Below, one piece after another: positions 3,854 through 50,136 of a stretch of DNA of 64,000 nucleotides; within the stretch, counting starts at the first letter, position 1, and every line of letters starts with the position of its first letter. The DNA is taken from the IMG/VR virus record IMGVR_UViG_3300029887_000004. One strand, written 5' to 3'. The notes beneath the pieces are model-generated. The model had not been told where the DNA came from. It saw only the letters and a list, made by a program, of their open reading frames with translations, and made no database searches. Origin of the DNA: a virus (lineage: Duplodnaviria; Heunggongvirae; Uroviricota; Caudoviricetes). The translations under genes and the position numbers were made by a program.

Positions 3854-5462
3854 CGGAATTCACCTCCGAAAGTACATCGCATACTGCTTTTAGTACAAAT
3901 TTTCTACCTAAAAATCCACTATCTAGACTACATACGGCTTCGAATTCATCATTCATAGTGCTATGATCCTCCATATCATCAAATGAACCGTCGAAGTTCC
4001 ATTTGATAATTTGCAAGTAATCATTCGGTTTTAGAACTAAATGTTTATAATCACTCATCTGACCAATTTCGTAATCACAAATATTATCCATATAAGCTCT
4101 TACTGGTTTAAAATTTGTGCCAGAAATACGATCAATCTTTTTGATATTCTCTACTAATCGTCTGGTAATATCTTCGACATCAATTTGAATATCAATGTCA
4201 ATTGTTGGTTCTTTAAACTCTGGAAGGTTTGTCTCAATATAAGACAAGAAATTGTTAAGATCTGATTTTTTGATTTGAATACCTGATGCAAGTTCATGTC
4301 CATCTGCTTTTGCATAACCACTATCATTGCAGATTTTTCGGAAATCATCAACACCTACGGCTCTCATAGAACCTGCATATTTTGATCCGATATCTTTCAA
4401 CACTAAGATCGGCTTTTGATACTTTTCTAGTAGCTTATTTCCTAATAAACCAGCAATACCATATTGTGTATCAATATATACAGCGATTACCTTTTGATCC
4501 TTTTGTTTCTCACATTGTTCATAAACATTCGGCAGTAAACGCTCCACTTCTTGATTTTGTTCTTCCTTACATTTCTTTAATGCTTTTACATAGGCAAGCA
4601 CTTGTTTGTTATTATCTTCTAGAAATGCATTCATAGCAGTTTCATTTTCACCCATACGGTTCGCTGCATTTACAATTGGAGCAATACTAAACGCAATTGC
4701 CGTACTGTTGAATTCAAATCCGCCGACAATCTTCTTAACTGCTGGATTATAAATCTTCTCAAGCCCTTTCGATACGATATAACGGTTTTCCATAACTGTC
4801 ATATCCATCATATCTCCAACTAGACCACATGCCGCAAGATCTACTAATTCATCTGCATAATCTGTAAGAAATTGTTCATCCAAATATTTACAGAATTTCC
4901 ATACCACCCCTGCTCCAGATAATTGCGAATTATCATAATCTCTTTGCGAAGAAATAAGAATTGTATATGTATCATATGGAATTTCCCGTTTAATTGCATG
5001 ATGGTCTAAAATAAGTACATCAATTCCTGCTTCTGACAATTCTTTATACTGAATTTCGTCTTCGTCTAAACTATCTACAACAATCAATAAATCTAAAGAT
5101 GCAAACTGCTGTAAATTTTGTCCTTTTAGTCCATGCTGCTTACCATCATCAATATATGTAAAAATGTCGTCGGTGAAATGTCTCAAATATCGCGTCATAA
5201 TCGTTCCTGCAGTGATTCCATCCGTATCTGTATCAAACAAAATACCAATGTTTTCGTTTTCTTCAATTGCCCGATTAATACGCATATATGCTTCATCAAT
5301 CCTATATAAAGAATCCAGTGGAAGCAAATCTTCTTCTGTCGGATTTAGAAAATGTTTCGCATCTTGAATTCCTCTTTGTTTAAGAATCGTATCAAATACT
5401 TCATCCTCATACATTCCTCTACAATCGTTTAAAATATTATAATTCTTCTTCGTCCTTATCAT
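3846..5462 (-). CDS. recJ: RecJ-like single-strand DNA exonuclease (DHH/DHHA1 phosphoesterase)
   Basis: Motifs LFDTDTDGITAG, ILDHHA (DHH) and a GSMRAVG region (DHHA1). Length 538 aa. Confidence 0.75.
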   Translation of the reverse strand: MIRTKKNYNILNDCRGMYEDEVFDTILKQRGIQDAKHFLNPTEEDLLPLDSLYRIDEAYMRINRAIEENENIGILFDTDTDGITAGTIMTRYLRHFTDDIFTYIDDGKQHGLKGQNLQQFASLDLLIVVDSLDEDEIQYKELSEAGIDVLILDHHAIKREIPYDTYTILISSQRDYDNSQLSGAGVVWKFCKYLDEQFLTDYADELVDLAACGLVGDMMDMTVMENRYIVSKGLEKIYNPAVKKIVGGFEFNSTAIAFSIAPIVNAANRMGENETAMNAFLEDNNKQVLAYVKALKKCKEEQNQEVERLLPNVYEQCEKQKDQKVIAVYIDTQYGIAGLLGNKLLEKYQKPILVLKDIGSKYAGSMRAVGVDDFRKICNDSGYAKADGHELASGIQIKKSDLNNFLSYIETNLPEFKEPTIDIDIQIDVEDITRRLVENIKKIDRISGTNFKPVRAYMDNICDYEIGQMSDYKHLVLKPNDYLQIIKWNFDGSFDDMEDHSTMNDEFEAVCSLDSGFLGRKFVLKAVCDVLSEVNSDE

Positions 5463-6486: not shown

Positions 6487-8046
6487 TTATCTTATTTCTC
6501 CATGTTTTGGACGGCATTGTGCCACTTCTCTGAAGATAGAATGATCGCCTGAAAACTTCAAAAGATACGCAATACCAGTATCACTGGAGTTATTACCATT
6601 CCGAGTTTTTTCTACAAATAACATTCTCCATACTGCATTTGGATCTGCTCTATATTCCTCTTCAATCCATTTATCGTTAATCTTTTTCAGTCTAAATGGA
6701 TGGCAATAATATTTACTTTTTTCATCAAGTTCTTCAGCATAAACAGTTCGCATAAGGAACAAATTCTCAAGAATTTCTTTCGTCTGCTTGGCATTACTAA
6801 GGCAACTGGCATCCAGGAATAATTTTCCTTTCATATATTCTGCCAACTGAACTGATGCCAACATGATTAAATTATATTTTTTTGCCAACTTATCTAACTC
6901 TCTACTGTCTCTAACTAAAGACAAATCTTGTCTGGAGGATGAAAAATCGCTCTCTTGGATTTTAAACGTATCGTATAGAACTGTATCATATCCAAATTTA
7001 AGAACATTCTCGCGTACTTTCTTCTTAACAACAGCCATGTCTGCATCGTTCATAGCAATGAACTTTACGCGACCCTTATAATTCTTTCTCCAGAATGCTT
7101 GCACATCTTTTAATTGCTCACGACTTTCCTTGTTTATATCACCCACAGACATTTTCTTTTTCGTAAGTTTAAAATATCTGTTCCTCTTGCCAAGGAGCCA
7201 AACCATAAATTTGATTTTAAATTTTTTAATATTTTCTTCGTTGGAAATAATAAGAATTTTCCGATCATAATATAGAAGAGCCATAAGAACTGTAATCCAC
7301 CAAGTGGATTTTCCTGCGCTACTGAATCCTCCCATCATTGTGAGAGTTCCTTCTAACAATCCCATTATTTGCCTAGATAAAAAAGGAAAACAATTGATTT
7401 CTTCTCCGTTTTTATCATATCCTGCTATATCAAAAGGTACACCATTTTCTTCACCTTCTGCACATGATTCAATAAATTCGTCATCGAAATCTATTTCTTC
7501 TTCTTCCAGGATCTTGCTCGAATATCCGGTACCATAAGTGCTTATTCTTGCCTCGTACCAATCCGTTACCTCTTCAGCAGTCATCTTTCGAAATAATTTA
7601 AGAGGAATAACTTTCTTATCCTTGATATTAATCTCTTTTAAAAGATTAAATCCATCATCGCACATGCGAAGCATAACATTTTCTCGATACAAGATATCAA
7701 TGTATGTATCAAAATTCTGTGTATTGATAATGTCCATCTGATGCTGAATCGAATCCCATCCACCACAATCCTCATATCGATCAATGACTTCTTGTTTTGA
7801 ATTTGACAGAATAGTTATTTCATCAAGAGAATAGAATCCTTTTTTTCGTAAATCTTTCAGTAGTGAAAAATAAAACCGACCATCAACAGTGATAAAATCG
7901 TCCTTCTCAAATGTCGTGTCATCCAAAAGAAGCATATCCTTAAAGAAACAGCTTACAACATTTCCCTCATATTCAATTCGTCCTTTCAATAGCTGCGCAG
8001 GATACTTTTCTTTGACACCTGTAATAAATTCAGCTATATTACTCAC
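6487..8046 (-). CDS. DnaB-family replicative DNA helicase
   Basis: Walker A GGFSSAGKSTWWITVLMAL and a RecA-like C-terminal domain. 519 aa, adjacent to the primase. Confidence 0.8.
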   Translation of the reverse strand: MSNIAEFITGVKEKYPAQLLKGRIEYEGNVVSCFFKDMLLLDDTTFEKDDFITVDGRFYFSLLKDLRKKGFYSLDEITILSNSKQEVIDRYEDCGGWDSIQHQMDIINTQNFDTYIDILYRENVMLRMCDDGFNLLKEINIKDKKVIPLKLFRKMTAEEVTDWYEARISTYGTGYSSKILEEEEIDFDDEFIESCAEGEENGVPFDIAGYDKNGEEINCFPFLSRQIMGLLEGTLTMMGGFSSAGKSTWWITVLMALLYYDRKILIISNEENIKKFKIKFMVWLLGKRNRYFKLTKKKMSVGDINKESREQLKDVQAFWRKNYKGRVKFIAMNDADMAVVKKKVRENVLKFGYDTVLYDTFKIQESDFSSSRQDLSLVRDSRELDKLAKKYNLIMLASVQLAEYMKGKLFLDASCLSNAKQTKEILENLFLMRTVYAEELDEKSKYYCHPFRLKKINDKWIEEEYRADPNAVWRMLFVEKTRNGNNSSDTGIAYLLKFSGDHSIFREVAQCRPKHGEIR

Positions 8047-8521
8047 CTACCTGTTCTTCAATATCAGATAAACTTCTTTTCTTCTGTCGTCGTTTATAAT
8101 GACCATCCGATATATCAACTTCCACCTGTTTAGGTACTTCTTTTTCTTTTACTTTAAAATCTGCGATACCATTTTTGATCATTGCAGAAAAATATCTGAT
8201 TTTAGCGTATTCACTCGAATAATCTCTTTGCTGAATGACAGATGTCATGTAATCTTTATTCTCTTCTAAATATGCTAAAATCCGATCATAAGAATAAGAT
8301 CCAATTATAAAACTTAACTCTTTGAATAATGCAGTATTAATTACTTTATAACCAAAAATCTCATTAATACACTCGTATGTATCGTCTCTTATTTTTCTGT
8401 CATGCAATACAGTTAGATATTCTGCTTCATTGCAGTAGTAGATGTTTTTACCATCCACTACCACTTTGAAAGCATCTTTTCTATCTACCTTGTTATTGCA
8501 ATATCTGCATTTAACAAGCAT
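8039..8521 (-). CDS. hypothetical Cys-rich protein
   Basis: ORF with RBS AAGGAG 8 nt upstream. Contains a CRYCNN...YYCNEAEY zinc-finger-like region. Confidence 0.5.
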   Translation of the reverse strand: MLVKCRYCNNKVDRKDAFKVVVDGKNIYYCNEAEYLTVLHDRKIRDDTYECINEIFGYKVINTALFKELSFIIGSYSYDRILAYLEENKDYMTSVIQQRDYSSEYAKIRYFSAMIKNGIADFKVKEKEVPKQVEVDISDGHYKRRQKKRSLSDIEEQVGE

Positions 8522-8533
8522 ACATGATACTCC

Positions 8534-9676
8534 TTAGTTCATCATATCGTAAATTCGTTTCAGTCCATCTTCATCTACATCATTAAGTTTGCCATATTCT
8601 GCAATGACTTTTCTGACGCTTGCTTTCTTATCTTTATCAGTACACTCTTTGAACATTGTACGAATTACTGCAGCGAGATCATCCGGATAATCAGAAGTTT
8701 CTGTCGTGGTTTCTTCTTGTGCTACTGTCTCCTCTACTGGAATATCATCAATATCCTCATCTTCTTCAATCGGTTCCAGATCAGGTTCTACTTTTTTCTT
8801 CTCCACAACTGGTTTAGATTTTTTACCAAGAGTAGATTTAGATTTCTCCATACCTTCCTCGACAACTCGAATAAAATCTGCCGCCATATTAGGTTTATCA
8901 AATACCAGATATTCTGGCACAGCGCCATCTGCAAAACGACCACCTGCGTCAATGAGTGTTGTTCCTCTGAAATAAAGTTTGCGAATAGTATCTGTCGCAT
9001 ATTTTTTGGTTTTATCTCCGACTTTTTTCTCCTCAAGATCACGGTCAATGACACCAGTAAGAGTTACATCAAAAATGTCTCCGAATGCTGCTTCATAATC
9101 CGATCCCATATTTGAAGAAAGCTGCATGTAACCATCTTCTTCCAGTCCACCCTTTTCTTTAATTGTTTTGAATTTTGTATGAGCAATAACCCACACGCCA
9201 AACCCAGCATCTTCAAGACGAGTCATATACGGTTTAATGATGTCATTTGCGGAGAATTTTTCACCTGCTGTATATCCTCCAAATGCAGCCTTAATTGATT
9301 TACATTTTTTGGTTGGATTCTCTACATTACTCTGACGAATTGTTTCCGCATCTGCAATTAGAGCAAGTTCATCACCGGTATCAAATGCCACCATTTCGAT
9401 ATCATGCTCTTTACCCTTTTCTTTAATAAGCCAGTCTGCTAACTCCTGAAGATCTTTATATGTCTTGACCTGTGTGGTATTTAAATTGTCAAGCATTTTA
9501 TAACCTTTCTCGTTTCCACATCCGACAAGCAGACCTTTTGCCGGATCTCCATATTTTTCCAGAATTACATCACGGAAAAGTGTCGTCTTACCAAATTTCT
9601 TAGTACTTCTAAGGTAAATAGAAAGATTTTTGATGTCTGGTTTAATTACATTGATTGTTGGTTTCTGAAATGCCAT
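8534..9676 (-). CDS. RecA-fold AAA ATPase (Sak4-like recombination/annealing-associated ATPase)
   Basis: P-loop TKKFGKTTL and an acidic C-terminus. Gene order typical of phage recombination modules. Confidence 0.55.
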   Translation of the reverse strand: MAFQKPTINVIKPDIKNLSIYLRSTKKFGKTTLFRDVILEKYGDPAKGLLVGCGNEKGYKMLDNLNTTQVKTYKDLQELADWLIKEKGKEHDIEMVAFDTGDELALIADAETIRQSNVENPTKKCKSIKAAFGGYTAGEKFSANDIIKPYMTRLEDAGFGVWVIAHTKFKTIKEKGGLEEDGYMQLSSNMGSDYEAAFGDIFDVTLTGVIDRDLEEKKVGDKTKKYATDTIRKLYFRGTTLIDAGGRFADGAVPEYLVFDKPNMAADFIRVVEEGMEKSKSTLGKKSKPVVEKKKVEPDLEPIEEDEDIDDIPVEETVAQEETTTETSDYPDDLAAVIRTMFKECTDKDKKASVRKVIAEYGKLNDVDEDGLKRIYDMMN

Positions 9677-37398: not shown

Positions 37399-38880
37399 TC
37401 ATGATATCAAATTATTAAAGTTATTTTGGATTGTTGATTCTACGGCATTGTTTCGTGCTTTGTACTCCCAAATAAAACCTCGACATGATTTTTGTCTATG
37501 TGCACAACATGCTTGTATATTTGTATGTGCTATCATAAAAAAATTTGCTGCTTCGGTTATGCTGCTCCATTCTTTAATAATATTTCCATTTTTATCTTTT
37601 TGATAAACTGCTTTTGCTGATGTTTTATTTGGAGAAGATGCCCATTTAATTGCATCTTCTATGTTCAAATTATCATCGTCATGTGCCCATGCATATCCAC
37701 CAGCTGTTTTACAATGTCTTTTACAGCAGTCTGAAATTTGACCATATGAAATTCCTGTCCTTCTATGTGCTTCTTTCAAGCTTTCATATCTAGCAACAAT
37801 AGTCCTCGTATTGATATCAATTTGAACAACTTTTCTTTTTGGTACAAGTTTATGTTTGATCTGATATTCGTTCTTTATATCTTGTGATGTAAAAATAAAA
37901 TTTTTATTTGTGATATTATTTTCAAAAATTTCTTGATAAAATTTTTCAAATATTTGTTCCTTTACATTAAAATTTGTATATTTAATTAATAAAAGTGGTA
38001 TTTGGTTTTTATTACAATATGATGTCTTTATCTCATCCTTATGTTTTCTATCTTGAAAATTTTCTTCTTTTACTAAATCAGATTCTCCACAAAACGTAAA
38101 TGGAGTATAATGTTGTTGGCCTTGTAATTCAATTAAAAACATTAGCTCTTTATTGACTGGATGGAATATAGCAAAATCAAAAGGAAGACGTTCTTTATCT
38201 TTACAATCTTCAAATTTATACTGGGATATATACTGTATGTTCTTCTGCTGAATATATTTTTCTAGTTCATATTCTGCTGCAGATATAAGACATCCACATG
38301 ATTTTTTATGCCCAGAACATAGTTCAGATGTACATGCAATACAAGTATTTTCACATTCACATTTACAATACCAATACTGTTTCCCGTCTTTTATAAACGC
38401 TCTTTTATATGGCGTTAATTTTCCAAAATGCTGATTTGTTATATCTTTTGCTAAAATTTTTCTCATTTTTTCAGTTCTAACACAACCACAACTTGTTGTA
38501 TGTCCCGATCTTAAATGTGTATCTGTGACATTTACAATATTTCCACAATCACATATACATTCCCATATAACTTTTGTTGAACCATTTGGTTGCATTTTAT
38601 TCTCTAAACGACTTAATACTACTAATCTTCCAAATCTTTGTCCGACTTTTGTACCAGTCTCTTGTTGATTTGGTTTGCAGTTTTCACAATATTGATAATT
38701 ATTATTACGAACTTTATATGCATTAAGTTCTTTAATATTTCCACAATTTATACATTCGCATACATAGTATGGTTTTGATTGTCCACTTGGTGTTATTCTG
38801 CTCTCTGCCATTCCTATAATTCTATAACACCCATATATCATTCCAATTTTATCTTTTGATTTGTTTCTAATATTTAGCAC
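37399..38880 (-). CDS. homing endonuclease: N-terminal zinc fingers, Vsr/DUF559-like nuclease core (FDFAIF...LIELQGQQH), two C-terminal NUMOD/IENR-type DNA-binding repeats
   Basis: Tandem C-terminal repeats IVARYESLKEAHRRTGISYGQISDCCK and IIKEWSSITEAANFFMIAHTNIQACCAHR. The gene is immediately adjacent to the disrupted pncB. Confidence 0.6.
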   Translation of the reverse strand: MLNIRNKSKDKIGMIYGCYRIIGMAESRITPSGQSKPYYVCECINCGNIKELNAYKVRNNNYQYCENCKPNQQETGTKVGQRFGRLVVLSRLENKMQPNGSTKVIWECICDCGNIVNVTDTHLRSGHTTSCGCVRTEKMRKILAKDITNQHFGKLTPYKRAFIKDGKQYWYCKCECENTCIACTSELCSGHKKSCGCLISAAEYELEKYIQQKNIQYISQYKFEDCKDKERLPFDFAIFHPVNKELMFLIELQGQQHYTPFTFCGESDLVKEENFQDRKHKDEIKTSYCNKNQIPLLLIKYTNFNVKEQIFEKFYQEIFENNITNKNFIFTSQDIKNEYQIKHKLVPKRKVVQIDINTRTIVARYESLKEAHRRTGISYGQISDCCKRHCKTAGGYAWAHDDDNLNIEDAIKWASSPNKTSAKAVYQKDKNGNIIKEWSSITEAANFFMIAHTNIQACCAHRQKSCRGFIWEYKARNNAVESTIQNNFNNLIS

Positions 38881-45428: not shown

Positions 45429-45584
45429 TTAATATATTCCGAAAAAGCTATACACTAGCTCAACCACAGTAGTTACAATAATAGTGATCCATAAAGCCTT
45501 TTCACTTTTTCGTTCTGGCTTCTCTTCAATTAGATTTAACCAGGCGAAGATAATTAGAATGATTCTTAGGATTGTAAGTAGCAT
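45429..45584 (-). CDS. small membrane protein (51 aa)
   Basis: RBS AGAGGTGA. Reads MLLTILRIILIIFAWLNL.... Lies 24 nt downstream of the iscB stop. Confidence 0.4.
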   Translation of the reverse strand: MLLTILRIILIIFAWLNLIEEKPERKSEKALWITIIVTTVVELVYSFFGIY

Positions 45585-45607
45585 GTTTTTCACCTCTTTT
45601 CTTTTAT

Positions 45608-47155
45608 TTATACAGCCATTCCTTCTTGATCCGTATGGGTCGCTTCGTACTCTAGACGATTATATTTTCTCCAAATCATTCCACGCCTTGTTCTTACAAT
45701 TTTTACTTTGTCTAATAAATTACTCTTTAGTAATTCATATTCTTCTTGTTTTATATTTATAGAAGGGTATTTGACTGTTTGTGCTTTATATGTAAATCGT
45801 ATTTTGAAATTACCATTAGGTAGTTTTTGCATGGATTCTACTTCTGCGATATTTCCTTTATGCTTTCCACTATTTATGTAAATTAAATCTCCACATTTCA
45901 AACAATATGAATTACAAACAAAAGTGCGTTTACCAGGTTTAATTTTCTTACCACGAAATTGTCTCATATTGTTTATATATTCTTTTTGCGTGACTCGTTT
46001 AGACGGAGCATTTGGAAGCCTTTCCTTATATAATGTATTACCACTTTTTTCTTTTCCATCACGTACATCTATGTATTTTGCATCACTAAATGTCTCCATG
46101 CTCCTGTCATTGCATCGTTTTTGATCTACAATATAGATATTCTCCGTTAATGTCACATCCTTGTAATCATTAATACAAACAGCATCCGTATAATGAAATT
46201 TTCTTAAACCGGTATTCCTTCTATTAATTTTTGTTTGATATCCATACCCAACTTTGACGTCATATTTGCCAGAAAGCCTTTCAAAAAGTTCCCAACGAAC
46301 CATATTCATATAAGTACTGTCTTTGTATGTATCCGATAACTTCATACTCTTGACTTTCTCAAAATATTTATTGTCGTTATTATTGGAATGCACCTTCCGA
46401 TGACAACTATGACATAAAGATATTAGATTACTTGGTTTATCGGTTCCTCCCTTTGAACGCGGTTGGATATGATGAACTTCAATCACAACATTTTTATTTG
46501 CGCCACACAACCGACATGTATGTTTATCTCTATCTCTAACATAAGCTGCTGCATTTTCATATCCTTTCATTTCTCCATTTTGATAATCTTTTCCTGATAT
46601 TTCTTTCCCGTCAGCTAAAGCTTTTATCATCTGGATATCAAATTTAGCAACTTCTACAATTACCTTATCTACTGGAATCCATGACGCAATTTTATCTATT
46701 AAACGAATATGTGAATCAATTTTATGTTGTATTGATGGAGCAAACCATCCTTCTTCATTTCCATTTTTATATGTTGGATTATGTATAGTTTTGTAGTCAA
46801 TGTTCTTATTTTTTCTATACCTAATTCTGGATCTTCTCGTTCTTCTATATCCATTTCGATTTGTTAATCTATCCGACATTCCTTTTAATAATTCGACTTG
46901 TCCAGCTAAATACTCATGATAATTATCACTGACAGAAAATCCTATGTTCAAATATCCACTATCAATTTTTAATTCGAAAATATCTCTATTTTCAAAATCG
47001 CTTTGATAATCGTCTATTCGTTTTATTACTAATGGATCATGATTAATGATTTTTGCTTTATTATTTCTAAGCAAATAACCAGCTCTACCGTTTGAAATCG
47101 GTACACACGGTTTATCATTTTTATCTACTACTAAAGTAAAATCTAAATATTCCAT
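45608..47155 (-). CDS. iscB: IscB (OMEGA) RNA-guided nuclease, Cas9 ancestor: PLMP-like domain, RuvC-I, Arg-rich bridge helix, RuvC-II, HNH, RuvC-III
   Basis: N-terminus KPCVPISNGRAGYLLRNNKAKII...PLVIKR (PLMP domain); RuvC-I ELKIDSGYLNIGFSV; bridge helix RTRRSRIRYRKNKN; RuvC-II IVEVAKFD; HNH CRLCGAN...EVHHIQPRSKGGTDKPSNLISLCHSCHRKVH; RuvC-III HYTDAVCIN. 515 aa. Confidence 0.85.
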   Translation of the reverse strand: MEYLDFTLVVDKNDKPCVPISNGRAGYLLRNNKAKIINHDPLVIKRIDDYQSDFENRDIFELKIDSGYLNIGFSVSDNYHEYLAGQVELLKGMSDRLTNRNGYRRTRRSRIRYRKNKNIDYKTIHNPTYKNGNEEGWFAPSIQHKIDSHIRLIDKIASWIPVDKVIVEVAKFDIQMIKALADGKEISGKDYQNGEMKGYENAAAYVRDRDKHTCRLCGANKNVVIEVHHIQPRSKGGTDKPSNLISLCHSCHRKVHSNNNDNKYFEKVKSMKLSDTYKDSTYMNMVRWELFERLSGKYDVKVGYGYQTKINRRNTGLRKFHYTDAVCINDYKDVTLTENIYIVDQKRCNDRSMETFSDAKYIDVRDGKEKSGNTLYKERLPNAPSKRVTQKEYINNMRQFRGKKIKPGKRTFVCNSYCLKCGDLIYINSGKHKGNIAEVESMQKLPNGNFKIRFTYKAQTVKYPSINIKQEEYELLKSNLLDKVKIVRTRRGMIWRKYNRLEYEATHTDQEGMAV

Positions 47156-47203
47156 AATTCATTTCCTTTAATTAATAACTCGACTTATAGTCGGTAATAC
47201 TCT

Positions 47204-47232
47204 TTGACAATGTTATTACAAGTTTTTATGCT
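47204..47232 (+). promoter_or_regulatory. candidate sigma-70 promoter (TTGACA -17- TATGCT) reading toward the repeat array
   Basis: ctcTTTGACAatgttattacaagttttTATGCTtaa. Transcription could instead run on the minus strand as an iscB 5'-leader. Confidence 0.35.
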
Positions 47233-47397
47233 TAAATCACTTGCGACAAGAAAGTTAGACGTAACGCATGTTTAAATCTAAACGATATAATTTGATACTA
47301 GAGTTACATATCAATATATTTTGTTGTAATAACGTAGATTAAATCTAAGTCTATTTTTATTTAACGTCTTAATTTTATAGAGTTATTTTATTTTGAG

Positions 47398-47695
47398 GAT
47401 TTGCAACCCTATAAAATTACATTCCTCTAAAACAGCATCGGAAAGAGGAAAAACCGCGCAAGGATTTACAACCCTATAAAATTACATTCCTCTAAAACAA
47501 GCAGACTACAATCGGATTTCAGTAGTGGGATTTGCAACCCTATAAAATTACATTCATCTAAAACAGCATCCTCGTAATCAATCAAAAGAACGGTGATTTG
47601 CAACTCTATAAAATTACATTCATCTAAAACCTTAACATAGACGTTTTGGAAAGCAGATGGATTTGTAACCCTACAAAATTACATCCCTCTAAAAC
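47398..47695. CRISPR. CRISPR-like array: five 36-bp direct repeats (consensus GATTTGCAACCCTATAAAATTACATTCCTCTAAAAC) with four unique 29-30-bp spacers
   Basis: Repeats at 47398, 47463, 47529, 47595 and 47660. Spacers are 29, 30, 30 and 29 bp. Mismatches rise from R1 (0) to R5 (4), and a possible sixth degenerate unit follows. The minus-strand repeat reads GTTTTAGAGG..., like type II repeats. Confidence 0.7.
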
Positions 47696-47858
47696 TTACT
47701 ATGTAATTTATAATAGGTTTGTGGATTTTCAGCTTGAATCAGCCATTCAGATGTGATATCCTAAGACTGAGGATAAATTCCTTCAACCTATTAATTTCTC
47801 TTTTTGAAGATCATCGTGATCTGGTCGCCAAACTTTCTCACAATGGTCTTCTATGTAT

Positions 47859-47913
47859 ACTATATATAGTGGTTTTATTTTCGCTAGACCACTATATATA
47901 GTATTTATTTTCC
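47859..47913 (+). terminator. rho-independent terminator hairpin (14-bp perfect stem ACTATATATAGTGG / CCACTATATATAGT + ATTTATTTT)
   Basis: Perfect inverted repeat followed by a T-rich tract on the plus strand, about 160 bp past the array. Confidence 0.45.
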
Positions 47914-47932
47914 TATGAAATCAGTCTTTCAT

Positions 47933-48130
47933 TCAGAAGAAGCTCTTTGATGTCGGACAACCAAGACATAACATACATTGTGTTAAATCGCACATATGAT
48001 GTGCCTTAATAAAATCCTTATCAGCAGCCTGTTCATCTGTGATTACGGTTCCACATTCGTCCATATTCTGGATCTCGTTTTCTTCATAAACCTTTCCTGA
48101 ATATTTTCCTAACCTTTTCATTTGTCTCAC
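47933..48130 (-). CDS. hypothetical Cys-rich protein
   Basis: 65-aa ORF. Confidence 0.45.
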   Translation of the reverse strand: MRQMKRLGKYSGKVYEENEIQNMDECGTVITDEQAADKDFIKAHHMCDLTQCMLCLGCPTSKSFF

Positions 48131-49080: not shown

Positions 49081-50136
49081 TCAATCTTCTGCTGAATTAC
49101 TTTTTTTGTCCTTCGTGTGTTTATCCTGTTCTATTTCAATCCAATCAGTATCATTGACTTTGATTTCTTTCATGTCATTAAATGCAATCAGGAATTTTCC
49201 AAAATTTTCTGGTGAAACTCCTTCATCTAAGGCTCTTTTCATAAGAGTCATCCATGCCATAAAATCTTTTGACACAAATAATTCAGCTACTTCTGTATGA
49301 TCGAGTTTATCTGCGTAAGGAATTAACATATTAAAGTATTTGTTCAGTGTATCAAATTCTTCTTCTGTTCCGTTCTCATTAAGATACTTGCAGATATCCC
49401 TTGGCGCCTTTTTCCATTCTTCTAAATGAAACATCGCCATAACGCATTCGATGATCACTCTTTCCCAGATGCCTTTTTTCTTGTCTAACTCATTCAGCAT
49501 CGTACAATCTTTAAGAAAACGATTATTATCTTTAATCCGTTTAATTTTATCCGCAAATGTACCAATGTAAGTAAACGCCTTCTGGCTTACATTCATTGGA
49601 ATAGTAGAGTTATATAACATGACAAGATCGCAGGTATCTTCTGGAGTACATTCCTGATAAATTGCAGCAGACAACTGACATGATCTCATTCTCTTTTTCA
49701 GTTCTGGTGGGAAATCATTATAAGTTTTATTAACCAGATCAAATGTTTTGATTTCTTTGATCAGTTTTCCATTTTCATCTCTCATAGGTTTTCCATTTTT
49801 ATCCAGTTTGTTTCCTTGATAAGTCACATATCTATTCCGGATTGATTTAGAGATCTTATGCCCATCAAACACAAAACGTCTGAGCGCTTCTGTTCTCTGA
49901 CCACCATCCACTACGTATGTAGTAGTAAGCCCATCTTCTCTTTTTTCTTCTGCAAGAATAATGTTGGGAATGTAAATCCGTTTTGGAGATACAGTACTAT
50001 AAATCAAATTATTGATCATTTCATTTGACCAACAAAACGCTCTCTGGACTGCCTGATCAACAGTAATAACTTCCTCATCAATACTATCAACATAAGCTCC
50101 TACGCCCATCTGTTCGATTCTGTATTCATCTAACAT
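49081..50136 (-). CDS. DUF262 (ParB-like nuclease superfamily, DGQQR motif) protein
   Basis: VVDGGQRTEAL, the motif found in GmrSD/DndB-type N-terminal domains. Confidence 0.5.
   Translation of the reverse strand: MLDEYRIEQMGVGAYVDSIDEEVITVDQAVQRAFCWSNEMINNLIYSTVSPKRIYIPNIILAEEKREDGLTTTYVVDGGQRTEALRRFVFDGHKISKSIRNRYVTYQGNKLDKNGKPMRDENGKLIKEIKTFDLVNKTYNDFPPELKKRMRSCQLSAAIYQECTPEDTCDLVMLYNSTIPMNVSQKAFTYIGTFADKIKRIKDNNRFLKDCTMLNELDKKKGIWERVIIECVMAMFHLEEWKKAPRDICKYLNENGTEEEFDTLNKYFNMLIPYADKLDHTEVAELFVSKDFMAWMTLMKRALDEGVSPENFGKFLIAFNDMKEIKVNDTDWIEIEQDKHTKDKKSNSAED

Follow-up and report, generated by a model that had tools for sequence, protein, structure and literature searches.

A phage-borne iscB gene behind a CRISPR array and an omega-derived tracrRNA-like scaffold: a probable minimal type II-like RNA-guided module

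The subject of this analysis is a locus in a 64,000-nucleotide stretch of viral DNA (Caudoviricetes; IMG/VR record IMGVR_UViG_3300029887_000004), which is referred to in its full length as the window. On the minus strand of the window, a CRISPR array with five repeats and four spacers is followed by an anti-repeat, a scaffold derived from the omega RNA and the nuclease gene iscB, in this order. The iscB open reading frame (ORF; 45608..47155, minus strand) codes for 515 aa. Pfam searches with the protein returned RRXRR (1.7e-35) and HNH (1.7e-12), and the NCBIfam equivalog NF040563 guided_IscB ("RNA-guided endonuclease IscB") was matched with 281.5 bits at a cutoff of 175. The hallmarks of the IscB family are all found, namely a PLMP domain (PLMP-like N-terminus KPCVPI), a RuvC domain split by HNH, an arginine-rich bridge helix (RRTRRSRIRYRK) and the lack of a REC lobe. 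A beta-barrel region interacting with the target-adjacent motif (TAM) is present as well. The catalytic sites comprise D65 (RuvC-I), E168 (RuvC-II), H228/H229 (HNH) and H321/D324 (RuvC-III), and all of these residues are invariant in an alignment of 87 relatives.

The AlphaFold model of the protein had a mean predicted local distance difference test score of 79.6. Foldseek searches with this model placed IscB-omegaRNA-DNA complexes on top (E 4e-24), followed by IsrB, whereas type II-D Cas9d and other Cas9 folds gave weak and partial matches (template modeling score 0.2-0.34). No Cas9 model of PADLOC matched the 515-aa protein. A protein database search separated the relatives into two groups, a clade of 513-579 aa with at least 43% identity over the full length versus ordinary IscBs of about 440 aa, which were at most 41% identical and covered about 85% of the query. 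The former clade owes its greater length to a C-terminal extension, some 70 aa long and specific to it, which carries the invariant motif R-x-RRG-xx-W (R488, R490, R491, G492 and W495). As judged from profiles, alignment and predicted fold, the ORF is a full IscB with intact RuvC and HNH sites.

Upstream of iscB and on the same strand, 36-nt repeats (n=5) recur with a period of 65/66/66/65 nt and enclose spacers of 29, 30, 30 and 29 nt, all of which are distinct. The repeat next to the gene (repeat 5, 47398..47433) equals the consensus GTTTTAGAGGAATGTAATTTTATAGGGTTGCAAATC in minus-strand reading. With growing distance from iscB, it is followed by spacer 4 (47434..47462; CTTGCGCGGTTTTTCCTCTTTCCGATGCT), repeat 4 (47463..47498), spacer 3 (47499..47528), repeat 3 (47529..47564), spacer 2 (47565..47594), repeat 2 (47595..47630), spacer 1 (47631..47659) and the distal, most degenerate repeat 1 (47660..47695). 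All elements lie on the minus strand. Mismatches to the consensus amount to 0, 1, 1, 3 and 3 from the iscB-proximal to the distal repeat. A gap of 242 nt separates the nearest repeat (47398) from the start codon (47155). The locus hence shows near-identical, regularly spaced repeats and unique spacers of uniform length, and the spacers vary among close genomes as described below.

A first-pass annotation made from the letters alone had recognized the IscB architecture of the 515-aa protein and proposed a profile search that might overturn it; Pfam, NF040563, catalytic residues and fold matches all uphold the assignment. Its description of five 36-bp repeats with unique 29-30-bp spacers at 242 bp from the start codon, with a degeneracy rising from one end to the other, was likewise accurate. 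It had also stated that cas1/cas2 and TnpA are missing from the window. For the cas genes this holds, since Cas1, Cas2, Csn2, Cas4 and Cas9 were not detected among the 97 other ORFs of the window (PADLOC, E<=0.001). For TnpA it holds for the eight flanking ORFs, which contain no cas or TnpA Pfam domain; the TnpA scan was limited to these ORFs, and transposon ends were not searched for.

The region between array and gene is predicted to encode a structured RNA. Directly after the last repeat lies the junction motif CTCAAAAT (47390..47397, minus strand), of which CTCAA (columns C37 T38 C39 A40 A41) is invariant in all clades. It is followed by the anti-repeat (47355..47385, minus strand) and by the omega-RNA-derived scaffold (47170..47354, minus strand), which would form the 3' part of a RNA resembling a trans-activating CRISPR RNA (tracrRNA). 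The scaffold is predicted to comprise a long-range helix with two hairpins in its interior and to end in a hairpin resembling a terminator (47181-47193); its helices are supported by covariation. The Rfam family HEARO (RF02033) matched positions 47194-47353 of the minus strand with 53.6 bits and an E value of 2.5e-9, and model positions 1-52 were absent. In canonical omega RNAs, these positions form the P1 stem (GUCAAC...) directly after the guide.

The anti-repeat was identified by inverted repeats, duplex folding and compensatory changes in five clades. Duplex folding pairs it with repeat positions 2-6, 11-15 and 16-30, which gives 25 bp with -17.9 kcal/mol and the succession of lower stem, bulge and upper stem known from the CRISPR RNA (crRNA):tracrRNA duplex of Cas9. 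Complementarity between anti-repeat and repeat, by which type II tracrRNAs are defined, is thus found computationally, as a predicted duplex with compensatory changes. Duplexes of -14 to -24 kcal/mol are predicted in every clade.

Covariation was examined over the stretch that begins with the last repeat and extends to the start codon, using 10 loci from eight sub-clades and RNAalifold. The consensus contained 50 predicted pairs, and compensatory changes occurred in 28 of them, including the repeat:anti-repeat helix. Pairs were formed in 92.4% of the cells compared with 33-42% in slid-partner controls, and none of 500 shuffles reached the observed values. The covarying repeat and anti-repeat strands read UAAUUUUAUAGGGUU and AACUCUAUAAAAUUA in the window, UAAUUUCAGAGGG and UCUUCUGAAAUUA in L008, and UAAAUUCAUAAGAU and AUCUUAUGAAUUUA in L014, two related loci. 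The lower stem covaries too, as illustrated by GUUUUGG:CCAAAA in L023. Conserved G-U pairs also occur, which would turn into A-C if the opposite strand were read, and the minus strand is therefore taken to be the transcribed one. A hairpin formed in cis by the repeat's 5' end and CCUCAAAAU, which appeared in the minimum free energy fold of the single sequence, had no covariation support and was rejected. On these predictions, the tracrRNA-like RNA, which lies between array and gene, joins an anti-repeat to an omega (HEARO) scaffold that is truncated at its 5' end. A same-strand array together with an anti-repeat in the non-coding RNA region upstream of the IscB ORF is what defines a CRISPR-associated IscB (PMC12660989), and both are present in the window.

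The locus was compared with its relatives in a set of 29 loci, consisting of 19 IMG/VR loci, 3 distant ones and 7 from a metagenome scan (L034-L038, L040), some of the latter being repeat copies of the same contigs. The 19 IMG/VR loci encode IscBs 58-98% identical to that of the window, and their viral contigs measure 17-222 kb, with the majority in the range of 80-220 kb. The succession of array, CTCAA, anti-repeat, omega scaffold and iscB was found in 19 of 19. The same layout was present at 43-52% IscB identity in L023 (8 repeats), L025 (5) and L027 (2) as well as in the IscB-array loci of the metagenome scan. Repeat numbers ranged from 1 to 8 across related loci, and unique spacers added up to 52 across all loci.

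Spacer content differed even among the closest siblings. In phages whose IscB is 97-98% identical to that of the window, the arrays hold 0, 1, 2, 3 or 4 differing spacers. L002, L003, L004, L006 and L007 have one spacer in common, L005 contains two others and the window four. L035 has three spacers, and its array is headed by the same degenerate variant as repeat 1 of the window; its distal spacer is window spacer 4 with one mismatch. Pairs of loci in clade D share their distal spacers. Such variation among near-identical phages is, at the level of the compared genomes, CRISPR-array behavior, and the turnover indicates an actual exchange of guides in nature. A single polarity of spacer acquisition was considered but not established, as the spacer shared between the window and L035 is proximal in the former and distal in the latter. 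A conserved motif at the spacer ends, which might mark acquisition or a TAM, was not found across clades. As separate observations, 4 of the 7 spacers of L023 (3213-3709) start at an in-frame ATG with a frame open through the spacer, and most of the seven have an ATGNN-like 3' end, a pattern absent from the other clades. The array of L001, whose IscB is 98% identical, is reduced by collapse to one repeat (4723-4758) and contains zero spacers; the sequence just upstream of this lone repeat would then serve as a fixed guide, as in canonical omega RNAs.

Cultured phages offered distant relatives. Megablast of 18 kb against GenBank phages revealed no near-identical cultured phage. The closest IscBs of cultured phages, those of Clostridium phage c-st and Clostridioides phage pCD1602_4, are 36% identical. 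Upstream repeats are missing in both, and their HEARO RNAs are full-length (140 and 124 bits). The c-st iscB adjoins a truncated IS200/IS605 TnpA gene. A RAGATH-18 RNA (L029 197-257; 64 bits, gathering score 44.9) was also noted near the canonical IscB/omega locus of c-st.

Off-array matches with up to six mismatches numbered only two when all spacers were considered, and both fell into one 207-bp ORF of L011. L010_s1 matched it with 3 and L009_s1 with 5 mismatches; these fall on the third base of codons and leave the encoded peptides the same as in the L011 protein. A comparison of translated spacers with all loci (peptide match 8/9 or better) returned this 68-aa ORF as the sole match. The 68-aa protein had no significant Pfam match, and its gene family was found in IMG/VR only on the contig of L011 itself. 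Together with a SIR2-family gene, the ORF makes up a 1.43-kb insertion (L011 3178-4604; IMGVR_UViG_3300045988_130106) placed exactly between the upstream gene and the array. L008, L009 and L010 are devoid of the insertion, and the flanks are 96-98% identical. The matches of sibling spacers to this cassette point to a possible phage-versus-phage conflict. Furthermore, variant spacer pairs within one array (s2/s3 of L019 and s3/s4 of L023) correspond to the same coding site with codon-like differences, which indicates that homologous genes of rival elements may be tracked. In IMG/VR, codon-degenerate patterns derived from these pairs matched arrays only, and exact 22-24-mers of window spacers 3 and 4 and of L010_s1 matched only the array of a related phage.

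The repeats resemble those of type II-A CRISPR systems. When 185,579 species genomes were scanned with a degenerate form of the repeat, of which two copies were required, the single match came from Enterococcus sp. PF1-24, whose type II-A array is laid out in the order cas2-csn2-leader-array. Its repeat (GTTTTAGAGGTATGTAATTTTGAATGGTTCCCAAAC) is identical to the window repeat at 29 of 36 positions, and the geometry of 36-nt repeats and 30-nt spacers is the same. In another IscB-array clade, represented by L038 (6775-8738; ERZ827452 NODE-3510), 32 of 36 repeat positions are identical to the Enterococcus repeat, and the adjacent ORF of 520 aa contains RRXRR and HNH domains. The L038 scaffold is predicted to pair with the Enterococcus repeat (-17.7 kcal/mol) as well as with its own (-16.8 kcal/mol), whereas the values for the window scaffold are -11.7 and -17.9 kcal/mol, respectively.

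The junction motif resembles the end of a type II-A leader. Read on the other strand, the junction is TTTTGAG/GATTT in the window and exactly ATTTGAG/GTTTT in clades C and E. Type II-A systems have ATTTGAG/GTTT as their conserved leader-repeat junction, and adaptation requires no more than the first repeat and the final 10 nt of the leader (PMC5382924). The Enterococcus sp. PF1-24 locus shows this junction as well. The similarity suggests that a type II-A adaptation complex of the host could insert spacers at the tracr-proximal end. The distal position of the degenerate repeats and the sharing of distal spacers in clade D would agree with this. Alternatively, CTCAA could be what remains of GUCAA at the 5' end of the omega RNA. 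Given the II-A-like repeats, sequence comparison suggests that an OMEGA system, the class of IscB and its omega RNA, secondarily captured a type II array module. The first-pass annotation had raised a Cas9-IscB intermediate as one option, and the likeness to modern II-A Cas9 repeats speaks against it; the locus is probably not a surviving intermediate on the way from IscB to Cas9. An unusual Cas9 locus with multiple array-tracr fusions was encountered besides. In L039 (3300-5170; ERZ773272 NODE-223, 23 kb), a Cas9 gene (REC, HNH, RuvC and PI) is followed by at least 5 tandem units of a mini-array and a tracrRNA-like sequence. The arrays each end with AAAAC/CTCAAA, like those of the IscB loci, and a TnpB/Cas12f-like ORF (7248-8885) lies nearby.

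We conclude that the locus is in all probability a phage-encoded CRISPR-associated IscB, a minimal type II-like module for an RNA-guided DNA nuclease that is devoid of adaptation genes and would be used against competing mobile DNA. The array would be transcribed as a precursor crRNA, and each repeat could pair with the anti-repeat of the scaffold by means of lower stem, bulge and upper stem, as in the Cas9 crRNA:tracrRNA duplex. This pairing would stand in for the P1 stem behind the fixed guide of canonical omega RNAs. A natural single guide may also arise when the last spacer and repeat fold onto the anti-repeat in cis. IscB would bind the dual RNA and cut double-stranded DNA at sites beside a TAM to which the 3' part of a spacer is complementary. 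An attack on competing mobile DNA is the presumed role because the only recovered targets sit in the cassette of a sibling phage at the same locus. Spacers might be supplied by recombination between arrays. Acquisition by the Cas1-Cas2-Csn2 machinery of a type II-A host is also possible, since the repeats, the 36/30 geometry and the leader-end-like motif resemble type II-A systems.

Several results weigh against this explanation. No protospacer of the four window spacers was found in the window itself or in any of the 40 loci, and all 33 concatenated spacers, those of the window included, had no match at E<=1 among GenBank phages and plasmids; the spacer search proposed in the first-pass annotation thus yielded no phage, plasmid or related-locus target for the window. 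Spacer 4 of the window had no match in Joint Genome Institute (JGI) metagenomes either. With 3 and 5 mismatches, L010_s1 and L009_s1 would have homologues of the L011 gene as their true targets, and not this exact sequence. Mean GC content is 43% in the spacers versus 33% in the phage (p=6e-13), so that most targets are probably other, GC-richer elements and not sibling phages. Moreover, the HEARO score remains below the Rfam gathering score of 83, a promoter scan at the array locus gave nothing better than chance, and the order of the spacer shared with L035 fits no single polarity unless a deletion is assumed.

Other functions of the repeats and of the scaffold have to be weighed. The repeats are regularly spaced, AT-rich and located in a region of phage replication genes, as would be expected of iterons, a replication origin or a protein-binding array, and IscB might then have nothing to do with them, being a homing or transposon nuclease that uses the usual omega RNA with one guide. 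However, the segments between the repeats differ completely between phages with 97-98% identical flanks, the number of repeats varies from 1 to 8, and the repeats covary with an anti-repeat inside an omega-like RNA that has lost its own guide-proximal 5' stem. They also show homology to the CRISPR repeats of type II-A systems. The origin reading is refuted by the variable spacers and by the covariation of repeat and anti-repeat, and we assign practically no probability to it. Conserved spacers, which the first-pass annotation had named as a sign of iterons, were not observed, as spacers differ among phages with 97-98% identical IscBs. Its proposal of an IscB with exchangeable guides, on the other hand, gains support from the collinear layout, the covariation and the differing spacers of near-identical phages. 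Array and scaffold could also act mainly on the type II-A Cas9 of the host, with the single guide RNA-like last unit as a decoy or hijacker, or with the scaffold capturing host crRNAs, and not primarily as a guide store for IscB. In favor of this, the repeats are members of the II-A family, the predicted pairing of the L038 scaffold is as good with the Enterococcus repeat as with that of L038 itself, and a subversion of Cas9 by phage-encoded mimics of single guide RNAs is on record (bioRxiv 10.64898/2026.06.01.729453). Nevertheless, the scaffold is homologous to the omega RNA of IscB and not to a Cas9 tracrRNA body, it is always located directly upstream of iscB, a decoy would have no need of diverse spacers that turn over, and the window scaffold pairs far less well with the II-A repeat than with its own. 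A decoy role, although not mutually exclusive with guiding IscB, therefore appears very unlikely as the main function.

Two further proposals build on the CRISPR-associated IscB instead of replacing it. The spacers might aim IscB at a rival allele of its own neighborhood in co-infecting siblings, and recombinational repair would copy the allele with iscB and array. Such RNA-guided homing or allelic exclusion would be a specialized form of the explanation preferred here and would continue the ancestral, selfish role of IscB in IS200/IS605 elements. It fits the position of the only protospacers, which lie in the L011 cassette of the putative helix-turn-helix (HTH) gene and SIR2 between upstream gene and array, while the siblings carrying the spacers are free of the cassette. 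The 96-98% identical flanks would support recombination, and the window encodes classical HNH homing endonucleases in addition. The proposal depends, however, on two imperfect spacers from one sub-clade, the window spacers match none of the +/-5 kb neighborhoods of its own siblings, and the spacer GC content argues that most targets are not sibling phages. We regard homing as unlikely on balance. A more far-reaching proposal is that the Cas1-Cas2-Csn2 complex of a type II-A host loads the arrays through CTCAA as an inverted leader anchor (TTGAG/GTTT), and that the phage uses the guides with its own mini-effector for exclusion of, or homing against, rival phage alleles. This chain of events is tentative, and we think it improbable as a whole. 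If true, the locus would be a hybrid that parasitizes host adaptation, with OMEGA and type II modules recombining in phages.

The surroundings of the CRISPR-associated IscB locus are phage-like. All genes of the window lie on one strand, its GC content is 33%, and it contains two tRNAs. It encodes a RecJ-like exonuclease, a DnaB-like helicase, a RNA ligase, HNH homing endonucleases and methyltransferases, and the best protein matches are to phages of Bacillota. The position of the iscB locus is conserved in related phages. The array is preceded by a non-coding region (47696..47932, minus strand), presumably bearing the promoter, which is variable or deleted in the siblings L002-L007. It separates the array from the upstream ORF (47933-48130) and contains a perfect 17-bp palindrome (47857-47904; ATACTATATATAGTGGT ... 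ACCACTATATATAGTAT) with a 14-nt loop; where the region is deleted in L002-L007, array and upstream ORF adjoin each other. Just downstream of iscB lies a skipping-rope RNA (Rfam RF02924; 45315-45395, minus strand; 71.3 bits, gathering score 36.7), and a 54-aa membrane-like ORF (45429-45593) is situated between the two. Two more conflict genes of the nuclease type occur in this region, one for a GmrSD_N/DUF262 protein (49081-50136, minus strand) at 1.4 kb upstream of the array and, further on, one for a HNH homing endonuclease with several domains (37399-38880, minus strand).

The locus would represent a natural lineage in which the fixed omega guide of IscB was split into an exchangeable crRNA and a tracrRNA-like scaffold. 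Because the repeats and the junction motif are of the type II-A kind, RNA modules of OMEGA and Cas9 systems appear to be interchangeable, which bears on the origin of tracrRNA and of the association with CRISPR. The lineage resides in large phages and is apparently aimed at mobile DNA including siblings, so that it may serve as a self-contained RNA-guided weapon in phage-phage conflict. In practical terms, it offers 515-aa nucleases with a short and defined repeat:anti-repeat, which could be fused into a single guide.

Comparison with known systems places the locus between several of them. With canonical OMEGA IscBs (HEARO RF02033; OgeuIscB 7XHT, 7UTN and 8CSZ), it shares the protein family, fold and catalytic residues, and with their omega RNA the predicted scaffold core with ACGUUAU nexus, long-range helix and terminal hairpin. 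The canonical IscBs of IS200/IS605 elements have one fixed guide and a GUCAAC P1 stem and often lie beside TnpA, whereas in the phage locus the first ~52-60 model positions are replaced by the predicted repeat:anti-repeat duplex, several guides are available and no TnpA is adjacent. The dual-RNA logic, the lower stem-bulge-upper stem, the 36-nt repeat and the ~30-nt spacer are those of type II Cas9 systems, and many II-D loci resemble the window locus in having no adaptation module. Unlike Cas9, the effector has neither REC lobe nor PI domain, and the tracr body is an omega scaffold. Furthermore, the degenerate repeat is found at the transcription-proximal end and the leader-end-like motif is inverted and tracr-proximal, in contrast to type II CRISPR arrays. 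Virus-borne mini-CRISPR arrays (Medvedeva et al. 2019, PMC6858448) likewise consist of 1-8 repeats in viral genomes without adaptation genes, and they share host-array-like repeats; their spacers are aimed at close viral relatives, as may be some of those in the phage clade. They rely on effectors of the host (PMC6858448), whereas the phage described here brings its own compact effector and a tracr-like RNA.

Closest to the phage locus are the CRISPR-associated IscBs. Such proteins were reportedly recognized by Altae-Tran et al. in 2021. An IscB with an array, which the first-pass annotation had set apart from canonical IscB, is therefore not unprecedented, as also evident from DelIscB (PMC12660989). 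IscB/HEARO genes on viral contigs are known as well and were described as not CRISPR-associated (PMC9755519); no paper joining IscB, arrays and phages was found among those searched. DelIscB is a CRISPR-associated IscB of 457 aa from an estuarine metagenome with repeats and anti-repeat upstream of the ORF, which cleaves DNA and has been engineered; the processing of its RNA into crRNA and tracrRNA is still open (PMC12660989). Like DelIscB and other CRISPR-associated IscBs, the window locus combines a RuvC/HNH protein of IscB size without REC lobe, the absence of cas1/cas2 and an omega-like scaffold as tracrRNA body, and like DelIscB it has repeats, spacers and anti-repeat in the stretch of non-coding RNA that immediately precedes the ORF. 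It differs from DelIscB, as far as this was compared by description, in that it belongs to a clade of 513-579 aa with a C-terminal extension on phage contigs of 80-220 kb, that its repeats are of the II-A family, and that spacer turnover and candidate targets are documented here. The category itself is thus already known, while the phage clade, the C-terminal extension, the II-A-like repeat and junction, the spacer turnover and the sibling-phage targets appear to be new.

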